Counted from the stretch's first letter, positions 31,474 through 36,018 are shown. The stretch is DNA of 64,000 bases from an uncultured Phycisphaerales bacterium (GCA_963758525.1 CAVWVQ010000003.1:3840001-3904000); one strand, 5' to 3'. Program-made: numbers and translations. Notes: generated from the letters alone by a model not told the origin.

Positions 31474-34211
31474 ATGTCCAAGTACACCGCGCGAAAGCGT
31501 GAGGGTTTCATCTCTGAAGGGGCTTCTTGTCAACGGCGAGACGGCTTGATTGCTAAGTTCCGTTCATTGCTCTCTCCGATCAGCTTCGCGCACTCCCCCT
31601 GCGCCCTTGGCGGGGAGGCTAACGAGGCGGGGGTTTGGGGGCAGAGCCCCCAAGTCTTTGTCGTTCTCGGCGGAACCGTGGCTGCCATCCGGCACCGCGC
31701 GGGCGGCGCGATGCGGCGGTTGAATTCATCTCTACGCGGTCATCGGACGGACGGGTCGCAATGCCAGGCCGTGTGTTCCGAGCCGAATAAAACCTTGTTC
31801 GCGTCAACCGGGCCGAATTCACACTGTCGCAGTCACCAGCAGAACCCGAATCCGACGCCAGTGGCGTCCGATTCGAACCAATGCCTGCCGGGCCGAATGA
31901 AGCCGAGTCGCGGTCTCCAGATTGACGAGACATCGTCTTGCATGGCTGCAAGAACTATTGATGTCATAAGCGTTCCGCCGAGCCGCTGGTCATGCCAGGA
32001 TCATCTCCTCTTCTTGTTTGACAGGTTGTTGCTTAGCAGATTGTTGCTTGAGCCGGGCCTTGTTGGCCGCCCGCTCGTGTCCGGTGGGCTCCTGGCCCTG
32101 GTAGGCCGTCCCGTCGCGGACCATGGCAAAGAGGACACGCAGCAGGCGTCTTCCCATCGCGACGTTCGCCTTGGGCTTGACCATGTGTCCGATCAGCCGC
32201 TGGCGGATCGCCTCCTGCTTCGCGTCGGAGCGGCAGAGGGTGACCGCGGCCTTGCACAACGCCCAGCGCAGCGTGGCGCTGCCCGCCTTGGTGATGTGAC
32301 CCGACTGGGTCCGGCCGGCCGACTCCTGGTTGTCGGGAGTCAATCCCGCCCAGAACTCGAGGGTGTCGGCGTTGGGAAAACGGGAGAACTCGCCGATCTC
32401 CGCGGCGATGATGCACGCCCAGATCTCGTCGATTCCCGGCACGCTCTTGAGAATCGCAATCAGGGAGGCGAATCGCCGGTCGCGGTTGGCAAAAATGATT
32501 TTCCTGCGCAGGCAGTCCCGCTGTCGCTCGATCAGGCAGACCAGGTCCAGGAAGTTGCCGAAGGCTTCGCGCTGCACGTCCTTGAGCAGATCGCCATTGG
32601 CCAGCAGCCATTTCTGGGCGCCGACGCCGTCCAGCTTGGGACCGCCAATGTTGGCGGCCAGGAGCATCGACCGCATGGCGTGCTTGGCGCGGGTGAGGGT
32701 GCGGGACAAATGCCGCCAGTGCCGGCCGAGCTTGCGGAGCTGCATCACTGCTTCGGGGGCGATCCATCCCAGCGGGCACTCCCCGCGGGAGAGGCGCTGG
32801 GCGATGTCGGCCGCGTCCTTGCGATCGGTCTTGCGCCGCTTACCCCGGAGGTTGGACAACTGCGTCGCGTCGGCGATCTCGATCTTGTCCACGCAGGAGC
32901 GGAAGCGGTCGATGAACCACTCGACAAAGCCGACGGCTTCCACTGCCAGGCGGCTGGGACGCGGCAACGCCAGCATCCATTTTTCGATGCGGTCAACGCA
33001 CTTGGTGTCACAGGTCAGCGCGGCGATCTGCGTCCCCGAAGCATCGACAGCACACAGCGAGACGGTACACTTATGCAAATCCACGCCGACGAACGCGGCG
33101 TACGAAACAGGCACATCAGACATAACAAACTCCGTGTTAGGGACCAAGGGAACTTAGAACACTCCCGGAAGCGTAACGGCTTCCGCAGGCCCCTTCACGG
33201 TTTTACGTTGGTGGAGCTTCTGGTGGTGATTGGCATCATCGCGGTGCTGATCGCGCTGCTCCTGCCGGCGCTGGCAGGCGCGAGTTCGAGGCGCGCCGGG
33301 TGGCCTGCATGAGCAACATGCGGCAGCTCGGCCAGTCGATGATCATGTACGCGAACGACAATAAGGGGTCGTTTCCGCGCGGGGTCTATTACCCGGATCT
33401 TTTCTACAGAAGCTCACCACCCTTGCCCGACACTTGGGCAGGGCTGCGCGGCTTCTCTGATCCGATTGCCAACAGTCCATTTGCCAATGCGACCAATCTC
33501 CTTGCCGATGACGTGCTCCCGCCCTGGCAGGTTGCCAAGCGCCCCGGCGACAATGACGTAACGGGCTGCCTTTTTCTCCTGCTTCGGACGTATCAGCTTC
33601 CCTCGGCCCTTTTTGTCTGTCCCGGACGCTACGACATGTATCCCGACGACTTCAGCAATACCTTCGGCGTCGCGGGGGCATCGACGGATCCGCAGCATCG
33701 ATCTAACTTCAGCTCCGTATACAATCTCAGTTACAGCATCTCCCTCCCATTCCCTCCTTCCTCCGCCTGGCGGCTGGGGTATCGCTGGGGTATTGCGGCA
33801 AATCCCGGTTTTGCCATCCTGGCCGACCTCAACCCGGGTGAAAAATACTCCGACTGCTGCTGCGTATCGCACAGCGGTTTGTATCTCAGCAACGGGCCGT
33901 CCACACCCACCGACGGCCCGCAACTTCAGAGGATGGCCAACAGCAGAAACCATAACAAAAAAGGCCAGAACGTTTTGTTCGCCGACGGACACTGCGAGTG
34001 GGCGCCCACCGCGTTCGCGGGCTACAACCAGGACAACATTTACACAACGTGCCTCGCCTCGGGTACCACTGGCCTGGCCAATCAATGGACAACCGCCGCC
34101 CAGACGCCCAATCCATGGGCTCTGGCGAACCCGAATGACAGCATGATGCAACCGAACGAAGGCGATATGTTCGATCCCACGAATACCAATGGCGGCCTGG
34201 GGATCAACTGA
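31474..34211 (+). CDS. Prepilin-type DUF1559 protein (copy B), interrupted by IS110 at the G-F codons; extra 1-nt shift near 33284
   Basis: GGAGG RBS and MSKYTARKREGF at 31474-31509; [12 protein letters not shown] resumes at 33205; body differs from copy A at about 22 of 302 aa by eye. Confidence 0.88.
31524..31989 (-). ncRNA. Putative bridge/seek RNA region of the IS (ends not defined)
   Basis: Non-coding end downstream of the recombinase with hairpins and four guide-like segments at 31725-31733, 31788-31797, 31818-31826 and 31898-31904. Confidence 0.65.
31990..33123 (-). CDS. IS110-family DEDD transposase/recombinase
   Basis: VGVDLHK, AVEA, KTDRKDA (D-E-D-D); SVPGI...AEIGEFSRF...AGLTP..QESAG...ITKAGSATLR. 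Confidence 0.95.
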   Translation of the reverse strand: MSDVPVSYAAFVGVDLHKCTVSLCAVDASGTQIAALTCDTKCVDRIEKWMLALPRPSRLAVEAVGFVEWFIDRFRSCVDKIEIADATQLSNLRGKRRKTDRKDAADIAQRLSRGECPLGWIAPEAVMQLRKLGRHWRHLSRTLTRAKHAMRSMLLAANIGGPKLDGVGAQKWLLANGDLLKDVQREAFGNFLDLVCLIERQRDCLRRKIIFANRDRRFASLIAILKSVPGIDEIWACIIAAEIGEFSRFPNADTLEFWAGLTPDNQESAGRTQSGHITKAGSATLRWALCKAAVTLCRSDAKQEAIRQRLIGHMVKPKANVAMGRRLLRVLFAMVRDGTAYQGQEPTGHERAANKARLKQQSAKQQPVKQEEEMILA

Positions 34212-34225
34212 ATTCAGGGCGGACC

Positions 34226-34719
34226 ATGCAAATGAGAGAATTGATCAACCGCCACCGCGGCATGACGTCGGGGCGCTGGTGATCGCGGTTGCACTGGCCC
34301 TGGGTCTTTCGTTGCGCAGCTCACTCGGTCCGGAGCGCGGGGCCCGCATCACACAGGCGTTTTATTCCGACGATGATGGCAAGAGCTATTTCGCCGAAGC
34401 GCTCGCAAAGCCCAGCCCATTCGACCATGGGGGCAAACTCGCATACCGCGCATATGTCTACCGCTGCAGCGATTCGAGCATTACATTTGTTGGCTACCTC
34501 GCCCGGCAGGCTCCCGATGAAAAGCCGCAGGGTGCGATGGGCAGCACCGCAGATGCTGTTAAAGCCGGCGCCGCACAAGGCAAATCCGCCGGTCTCACGG
34601 AAGTGAAGAAGCCCGGCGATTCCAAGTGGGTGGCGATCAATGGTGCCGACGGAACCACCATTATCAACGTAACCTGTTCCGACGGCGAACGGCCCCTGGC
34701 CGTCGTGCCCGGCAGCTAA
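34226..34719 (+). CDS. Membrane-anchored hypothetical protein (copy B; 1-nt shift near 34272)
   Basis: MQMRELINRHR start and body homologous to 18994..19488; same intergenic tgaattcagggcggacc. Confidence 0.8.
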
Positions 34720-34810
34720 CCACTCCTCCGTTTCAGTCGAGCTATTCAATGTTGCCCAACCCGGCGAGATTTACACGATCGCCGTCGCGGCAACAATGGA
34801 GCATGTCTGC

Positions 34811-35202
34811 TGTTCCCCTTCGGGCACGGGCTTAGCTACACGACATTCGACTACGGTGATCTGAAACTCTCCGCGACGGAAGTAAAGGCGGCAGGCAAAA
34901 TCACGCTCTCCATCGAGGTGACCAACACGGGCTCCCGCGCCGGTGACGAGGTCGTGCAGTTCTACGGCCACCAGCGTCAATGCAGCGTGAAACAGCCGAA
35001 TCAGAAGCTGATCGCATTCGCGCGGGTTCACCTCGAAGCGGGCGGGAAGAAGACGGTGACGCAGGACGTGCCGGCGGATCGGATGTCGATTTACGAGGTC
35101 AAGCCGCACAAGTTTGTCGTCGAGCCGGGCAGGTTCGACGTGATGGTTGGAAGCTCCGCGAAGGACATTCGTAGGCGCGGTCAGTATGAAGTGTCTGATT
35201 GA
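34811..35202 (+). pseudogene. Orphan 3' fragment of GH3 gene (Fn3-like domain)
   Basis: FPFGHGLSYTTF...VTNTGSRAGDEVVQFY...GQYEVSD*, close to the C-terminus of 11039..13188; no 5' part. Confidence 0.85.
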
Positions 35203-35270: not shown

Positions 35271-35588
35271 GTGAACGTCATCAGCCGAAAGAAGCTCAAG
35301 GAGTTCTACGAGGCAAAACCGGAACGAAAGAAGCACGCCGGCGCATTTGACGACTGGTTCAAGATCGCTCGCAAGGGTCGCTGGCAGAATTACCAGGACA
35401 CGAAAGCAACCTTCGGCCAAACGGACGTTGTCACTGGCGACACGGGTCGAACCGCCACAATTTTCGACATTGGCGGGAACAAATACCGCGTCGTCGCCCA
35501 CGTCGATTACACACGGCAGACCGTGAAGATCGAAGCGGTGATGGATCACAAGGAATATGACCAGGGTTCGTGGACGAAGCTTTTTTGA
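35271..35588 (+). CDS. higB: Type II toxin, HigB family
   Basis: VISRKKLKEF...IFDIGGNKYRVV...DHKEYD. Confidence 0.9.
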   Translation: MNVISRKKLKEFYEAKPERKKHAGAFDDWFKIARKGRWQNYQDTKATFGQTDVVTGDTGRTATIFDIGGNKYRVVAHVDYTRQTVKIEAVMDHKEYDQGSWTKLF

Positions 35589-35598
35589 GGAGTTGAAG

Positions 35599-36018
35599 AT
35601 GCCCAGGACAAAATTCCGCAAGACTGCACGGATCGGCGACACCTACATGGGACTGGTCCGGCGTTTCCCGTTGAAGACGATCAAAAATGATGACGGGCAT
35701 GAGGAAGCAACGAACATGATTTCGGAGCTGATGGGCCGCGATCTCGACGCTGGGGCCGGGGACTACCTTGATGCATTGCTCGTGCTGGTGAACAAGTACG
35801 AGGATGAGCACCATGCCATCGACGCAACGATGACGCCGCAGCAGGCGCTTCGGTCGTTGATGGAGTCGAATACTCTGAGTCAAGCGGACATCGGCCGGAT
35901 CATCGGCAGCGAATCGGCGGTCTCGATGTTCTTGAAAGGTGATCGCGATCTGTCGAAGCCTCAGATCAAGAAACTCGCGGACCGGTTCAAGGTAGATGCC
36001 TCACTCTTCATCGGGTAA
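35599..36018 (+). CDS. higA: Antitoxin HigA (HTH)
   Basis: YLDALLVLVNKYE, LRSLME..LSQADIGRIIGSESAVSMFLKG.R.LS; follows the toxin; GAGGAG RBS. Confidence 0.9.
   Translation: MPRTKFRKTARIGDTYMGLVRRFPLKTIKNDDGHEEATNMISELMGRDLDAGAGDYLDALLVLVNKYEDEHHAIDATMTPQQALRSLMESNTLSQADIGRIIGSESAVSMFLKGDRDLSKPQIKKLADRFKVDASLFIG

Follow-up and report, generated by a model that had tools for sequence, protein, structure and literature searches.

The window, a stretch of 64,000 nucleotides from an uncultured Phycisphaerales bacterium, contains a complete insertion sequence of the IS110 family (IS1111 group) within a DUF1559-like prepilin gene. The recombinase is encoded on the strand opposite to the interrupted gene, and the back strand of the element continues the host reading frame. 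The features of the locus are as follows.

31474..33312, plus strand: read-through frame, consisting of the host ATG, a 12-codon leader, 565 stop-free element codons and the mature pilin N-terminus TLVELLVV
31510..33204, minus strand: complete IS110-family (IS1111 group) element, 1695 bp or 565 codons, with common ends in four copies
31515..31523, plus strand: sub-terminal inverted repeat TGAAGGGGC, 9 bp; both arms change together in relatives
31528..31533, minus strand: TTGACA, predicted part of a junction promoter; circle joining would place it 17 nt from TAAAAC
31713..31980, minus strand: predicted bridge (seek) RNA, from the consensus fold of 41 relatives, with predicted ends
31725..31733, minus strand: right donor guide AGAGAUGAA, matching the left junction
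31788..31794, minus strand: left donor guide GGUUUUA, matching the element end at 33199-33205
31818..31826, minus strand: right target guide CAGUGUGAA, pairing with TTC ACR YTG
31848..31874, minus strand: hairpin between the target guides, hypervariable, changing length only in steps of 3
31898..31904, minus strand: left target guide GGCUUCA (Gly/Ala and Phe codon, then A), from sequence match
31990..33147, minus strand: DEDD recombinase gene, a TTG-started ORF of 385 aa (PF01548 and PF02371)
33145..33204, plus strand: element-encoded replacement leader end QGNLEHSRKRNGFRRPLHG↓F, basic, with Gly at -1 (...RRPLHG↓F)
33189..33197, plus strand: sub-terminal inverted repeat GCCCCTTCA, 9 bp, also coding for part of R-P-L-H in the host frame
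33205..34211, plus strand: remainder of the interrupted DUF1559-like prepilin gene (PF07596 below cut-off), with a frameshift at about 33280-33300

The element, its ends and its host genes

The genome carries four copies of the element, which are 99% identical. Insertion is site- and orientation-specific and leaves no target duplication, as seen from reconstructed empty sites; the crossover contains a single shared A, here assigned to the left end. The recombinase matches NF033542 at 184 bits (cut-off 140) and has the catalytic DEDD and Ser residues, with D15, E62, D100, D103 and S268 invariant across 20 relatives; the combination of DEDD and Tnp20 domains is that of the IS1111 group. The ATG at 33121-33123 is a likelier start than the TTG that opens the ORF. 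The 9-bp sub-terminal inverted repeats fall within the 7-17 bp of this group, and the non-coding ends have its layout, with 480 bp downstream of the recombinase gene and 57 bp upstream.

The empty site had been given as GGTTTCACGTTG in the first-pass annotation, and this proved correct. Identical copies in one relative genome have either TTC or TTT at the left junction (L006, L008 and L021 compared with L023), so the left Phe codon is derived from the host and the donor joint is CACGGTTTTATCTCT. This joint is directly visible in L097, which is inserted in tandem behind the end of another element. An alternative empty site (TTT, core TT) was ruled out by the left-junction variation and by L097. 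No RNA run was listed among 13 public runs, and four DNA contig sets showed neither a circle joint nor a natural empty allele; these negatives do not speak for or against. By analogy with known IS110 biology, the element would form a circle, use a junction promoter and recombine under RNA guidance; we read the TTGACA-17-TAAAAC arrangement produced by joining the ends as the likely promoter (PMC11208158, PMC11187229). An Rfam scan of positions 30000-35000 returned no match at E<=1. A terminator-like hairpin at 31629-51 (plus strand) was within chance (1 versus 1.7).

The frameshift in the host gene of the window possibly reflects decay or an assembly error. The other three host genes are intact, encoding 328, 144 and 299 aa, and two adjacent members of a pseudopilin-like gene cluster (G000:C3:4127929-4132400, in the same genome) each carry the element. 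The genome also encodes two PF01478 peptidases and Rho.

Bridge RNA and choice of target

The region downstream of the recombinase gene had been proposed to contain four guide segments, each preceded by GAA, of a bridge RNA aimed at the codons of a protein motif. All four were recovered on the sequence. The segment at 31725-33, TTCATCTCT, equals the left junction at 31507-15 in 9 of 9 positions, and the reverse complement of 31788-97, CAAGGTTTTA, matches CACGGTTTTA at 33196-205 in 9 of 10, although the contiguous match is only 7 nt. The segment at 31818-26 is TTCACACTG, and 31898-904 reverse-complements to GGCTTCA. GCCGAA precedes three of the segments and TTGAA one, and the hairpin between the two target guides is present with its core at 31848-74. 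Of 3000 sequences obtained by dinucleotide shuffling of 31524-31989, 3, 17, 13 and 740 contained the respective single matches, and none had three or more of them together.

The guides had been expected to lie in loops when the minus strand of 31524-31989 is folded. This does not hold for single-sequence folds (z -0.55 and -1.08), in which the guides are largely buried (mean unpaired probability 0.12-0.61) and forcing them open costs about 10 kcal/mol, but it does hold for the target guides in the consensus fold of 41 sequences, where both are unpaired. The consensus layout combines an outer stem and a 5' hairpin with an internal loop for target binding and a second hairpin that has the donor guides on either side, an arrangement that agrees with the multi-loop donor site of IS1111 RNAs (PMC11208160, section 12). 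In the named consensus structure, 96% of cells pair, compared with 23-42% in slid controls, and 29 of 52 pairs are altered on both sides, a value as high as in none of 500 shuffles. Against this layout, in the RNAalifold structure the donor guides are paired to one another, via nearly invariant columns. We confirm the region as a predicted IS1111-type bridge RNA with target and donor guides. After strand exchange, the 3' part of the right donor guide appears to fit TTC from the host better than TTT from the donor, which would resemble the handshake-like mechanism model taken from PMC11208158.

Relatives were collected at 112 loci (27 genome loci, 80 of 199 metagenome loci and 5 further ones), of which 79 are two-ended and 33 lack an end. 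Their recombinases form a tight clade in a quick tree, with about 62-88% identity and the nearest full-length outgroup at 41%; since relatives share ancestry, counts across the family overstate independence. Phylum searches of 401 genomes found the family only in its own genome, plus the distant L029. Among the two-ended elements, 69 of 79 sit before [TS]-L/M-[VIL]-E; the other ten comprise four with short or N-containing flanks, one at S-T-F↓T-P-V, two that belong to tandem arrays, and three that were retargeted.

The idea of an IS1111-type bridge RNA directed at a codon string is supported. The motif scores above cut-off for TIGR02532 and PF07963 and is the signal for prepilin cleavage and methylation. 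The four copies in the genome interrupt four separate genes at an identical base of [G/A]-F-T-L-[V/I]-E, always with the recombinase gene on the strand opposite to the host gene, and the suggested G-U/G-T wobble is compatible with all four occupied sites (ACA/ACG followed by YTG). What did not survive is the exact Gly-Phe-Thr-Leu programme: the family reads [G/A]-F and F-T, and the Leu codon is unconstrained. In 57 elements, the left target guide reads AF in 27, GF in 22, VF in 4 and something else in 4 (one misparsed), and the right target guide reads FTL in 30, FTR in 19, FTW in 3 and something else in 5. Left-guide positions 2 and 6 match the targets of these elements 38 and 43 times, compared with 24.6 and 28.8 expected (permutation p 1e-4); right-guide positions 8-9 show no covariation with the targets (p 0.06 and 0.91). 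Tree-aware covariation, from which 10 named atypical rows were left out, pointed in the same direction at low power, with median p 0.25 and 0.375 from only 5 and 7 independent pairs.

It is likely that the bridge RNA placed the element at this Phe codon of the prepilin cleavage motif. Guide pairing alone, however, does not explain the choice of site, because the genome has 45 empty sites that could pair equally well, and 44 of these are not pilin motifs; either a wider context is read or insertions elsewhere have been purged. Three of the four occupied sites have Ala codons, which mismatch the Gly guide of this element. That every pairable pilin site is filled was refuted by one empty site (C3, AFTLTE). 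The motif Phe codon is TTC in 4 of 4 occupied sites compared with 8 of 50 empty prepilin motifs of the same genome (Fisher p 0.0016).

In the 42 other unoccupied motifs of this genome the Phe codon is TTT, although TTC is commoner genome-wide (30179 versus 16079). This excess of TTT may possibly reflect host escape from TTC-reading guides or the scars of past elements.

The open frame on the back strand

The frame that runs through the whole element is the main feature of the locus and was overlooked in the first-pass annotation. The only Pfam match in the read-through product is PF07963 (28.9 bits, residues 575-597), and the features of a class III signal peptide are present: a hydrophilic leader ending in Gly/Ala, a hydrophobic stretch and Glu5 (PF07963, TIGR02532). 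Two such products that were looked up have no entry in the protein collection, which is uninformative. This element alone is a weak case, as 236 of 1053 similar-length ORFs of the genome also lack TTA, CTA and TCA, and no stop arises in 80 of 2000 shuffled versions of its end. Across the family, 67 of 69 pilin-site elements have lengths that are multiples of 3 and 63 are fully open; after dereplication at 90%, these numbers are 48 and 44 of 50, with 34 distinct lengths of 1578-1899 bp. The non-coding end is stop-free in the host frame in 46 of 50 elements and in the other five frames in 0, 2, 0, 0 and 0. Four sub-segments of this end hold phase in 47, 47, 47 and 46 of 47 elements while taking 12, 11, 2 and 25 lengths.

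The recombinase genes point the same way. In 47 elements, a count that excludes L085 (frameshifted recombinase) and the low-GC L058 and L112, usage of CTA is 1/1455 and of TCA 1/530, and TTA occurs once, compared with 3.6-4.1% for GTA, CCA, ACA and GCA. The corresponding values in 13 outgroup IS110 genes are 17 of 415, 12 of 134 and 18. Codons that create stops on the back strand have been purged from these genes. In the host frame, dN/dS is about 0.89 (23 disjoint pairs) with substitutions even over the codon positions (439/482/478), and no amino-acid constraint is seen in the non-coding end. The last 19 residues of the insert differ from the rest in their net charge, which is +5.6 compared with -0.06 elsewhere (50 elements). 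We propose from these patterns that the inserted polypeptide is a filler, selected only for the absence of stops, and selection for the passage of ribosomes through the element is very probable.

Relatives that were retargeted have lost the read-through trait. L010 is nested in the clade and occupies a non-pilin gene; it does not keep the frame and has 10-21 stops, and L062 and L063 are likewise out of frame with stops. The guides of L010 and L063 match their own sites, and those of L062 match poorly. The gene that received L010 (L010:1610-4389), which we take to resemble an Rpn/YhgA-type transposase gene, has the same orientation as the L010 recombinase.

Other relatives keep a long frame in a different arrangement. 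In a nested low-GC lineage (L057, L058, L112 and the partial L111), the frames are coupled through a stop and an ATG: the host frame stops at codon 11, a frame of about 537 codons reopens at an ATG 2 nt on, and it ends 1-7 nt before the ATG of the element's own 16-codon leader, which ends in PIHG↓F. The distant L029 (G369:C15; 34% identical, 1395 bp) lies at AF↓TLIE; its single stop is followed at once by ATG. L029 and the partners found in the right flank of L083 and the left flank of L057 represent two further, more distant IS110 lineages, about 32-37% identical to the outgroup queries, which have LHG↓F ends or start at prepilin sites of this kind and have long open back strands. The partners of L083 and L057 stack in tandem with the main family at one site because each end recreates H-G-F.

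Two intact DUF1559-like genes of the genome (G000:C3:687725 and C3:4773160) have leaders ending in SRRPLHG↓FTL, with no transposase match nearby. These leaders resemble the element end at the DNA level; either they were domesticated from the element, or the element took its end from them.

Probable read-through, its alternatives and known systems

The arrangement suggests how the element might stay silent. The bridge RNA would guide it to the Phe codon of a prepilin cleavage site, and host ribosomes would translate all 565 back-strand codons in register with the host gene. Membrane insertion would then proceed despite a cytoplasmic leader of 530-635 residues, and prepilin peptidase would cut the Gly-Phe bond supplied by the element, freeing an unchanged mature pilin; ribosome cover of the 1.7-kb insert would also avert polarity on downstream genes. 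Prepilin leaders differ in length, are hydrophilic with Gly or Ala as the last residue, and are removed on the cytoplasmic side (PMC10191384); the insert thus falls within the segment of the protein that is discarded. Judged from the sequences, read-through of the back strand followed by release of the pilin from a long precursor by prepilin peptidase is probable. To our knowledge, no prepilin leader of 500 or more residues has been described, which counts against read-through, and co-translational targeting would have to work behind a leader of this length. In addition, a 19-residue hydropathy window of at least 1.9 occurs in 15 of the 44 open inserts, in 14 cases near codons 9-13, and such windows could mis-anchor the protein; the maximum of this element is 1.33. 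The frameshifted host gene of the window, which looks dead, also speaks against read-through, although the three other host genes are intact.

The open frame could instead act only against polarity, keeping ribosomes on the message and thereby preventing Rho from ending transcription of the operon genes downstream, the fusion being degraded and the pilin being made by re-initiation about 44 codons before the cut. The low-GC lineage fits this explanation, as it keeps a back-strand frame of about 537 codons unfused to the pilin with stop-ATG couplings on both sides, and so does L029, in which the ATG directly after the stop lies 35 codons before G↓F. Rho is present, both adjacent pseudopilin-like genes of one cluster are occupied, and an in-frame ATG or GTG is commonly found about 44 codons upstream of the cut, lying opposite the conserved His codon in most elements. 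However, in 44 of 50 elements the long frame runs into the pilin without a stop, and both junctions preserve the phase. The internal start arises as a by-product of the invariant D-L-H motif, and inspection by eye showed no conserved ribosome-binding site. We consider an effect on polarity alone to be unlikely, although it deserves the most weight among the alternatives.

That the frame remains open even where it is unfused to the pilin, as in the low-GC lineage, and that each of the 50 open elements has some ATG, GTG or TTG in the range of codons 5-21, would also fit a functional protein of the element, for example a regulator, whose fusion to the pilin is incidental. The dN/dS of about 0.89 and the even codon-position counts argue against such a protein, as do the scattered position of the first ATG (codon 10 to 203), the lack of any Pfam domain in the insert and the loss of the frame on retargeting in L010, L062 and L063, and we regard it as highly improbable. 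Still less credible is an open frame that is a mere by-product of high GC and codon bias, with the element simply knocking out redundant pilin-like genes. The three codons are absent from 22% of similar-length ORFs, the host gene of the window is broken, and losses may be cheap with about 50 such motifs in the genome. Yet this leaves unexplained the 3n lengths and the frame-specific absence of stops in non-coding DNA; CTA and TCA are about 30-fold below other A-ending codons, also at about 47% GC, and 11 of 13 outgroup IS110 elements are without equal openness.

Read-through with cleavage by prepilin peptidase, the reading we prefer, would mean that a host enzyme neutralises a transposon post-translationally and that a single stretch of DNA serves at once as recombinase gene, structured guide RNA and open back-strand frame. 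Prepilin peptidase would have to accept leaders of 500-600 residues, which bears on the targeting and cutting of class III signal peptides. On balance, we incline to see here a route of silent insertion besides introns and inteins, in which an RNA-guided insertion sequence enters at a protease cleavage site and provides a translatable back-strand leader that is cut off; at least three divergent IS110 lineages, regeneration of the target, tandem stacks and element-like host leaders would belong to it.

Inteins are likewise selfish in-frame inserts at conserved protein motifs that are translated with the host protein and removed, but they splice themselves out and rejoin the flanks, whereas the insert described here is a non-conserved back-strand filler that would be discarded with the leader, without ligation. 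It contains no Pfam domain and no Hint splicing domain. Type IV pilin genes are also acted on by Piv, a domesticated invertase for phase variation, in contrast to the mobile multi-copy element inserting at cleavage sites found here. The Piv invertase of Moraxella is named as an IS110 relative (PMC11187229). IStrons (10.1101/2023.11.20.567912) share the principle of an insertion sequence in a host gene that is silenced phenotypically after transcription; they do so by group I intron splicing at the RNA level, whereas proteolytic removal by a host enzyme would apply here, and the Rfam scan of 30000-35000 gave no sign of an IStron or group I intron.

The element is an IS1111-group member with a predicted bridge RNA, and for its way of staying silent we found no described counterpart. 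With the bridge/seek RNA systems of ISEc11, ISPa11 and ISKpn4 (PMC11208160, PMC11187229), it shares the DEDD recombinase, the RNA in a long downstream end, sub-terminal inverted repeats, four guides with the donor guides in a multi-branch setting, a (here predicted) junction promoter, a fixed site and orientation, and the absence of target duplication. It differs from them in aiming at a site of host protein processing that is common to a large gene family, and in that the whole element is an in-frame leader; its crossover has one invariantly shared base (A), compared with CT in IS621. The targeting of motif codons was already known from ISEc21 of the IS110 group, which is directed at codons surrounding the second Asp in DDE transposases of the IS3 family (PMC11187229). 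Unlike the present element, ISEc21 targets other mobile elements and has its RNA upstream, and no preservation of frame is reported for it in the accessible text of that paper. No description of an IS110 element at prepilin sites or of a read-through element was found among the literature matches listed or by term counts, and the accessible text of 10.64898/2026.08.14.744561 makes no mention of pilin, in-frame or antisense; ISfinder or the supplements of PMC11208160 and PMC11187229 could list a member. Planctomycete DUF1559/prepilin-like gene families gain a dedicated mobile element, and the pairing rules of IS1111 RNAs can be studied on about 60 natural variants of the guides in a compact bridge recombinase system, retargeted members included.

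Elsewhere in the window, a short ATTCGTG-rich repeat at 31250-31325 is matched by many unrelated metagenome contigs, is possibly a dispersed repeat and adjoins an apparent truncated regulator fragment. On the minus strand, positions 26560-30892 encode in a row an ECF-type sigma factor, a FecR/LamG anti-sigma-like gene and a PATR-repeat passenger gene, and a HigB toxin (PF09907) with an HTH_3 antitoxin-like partner lies at 35271-36018.
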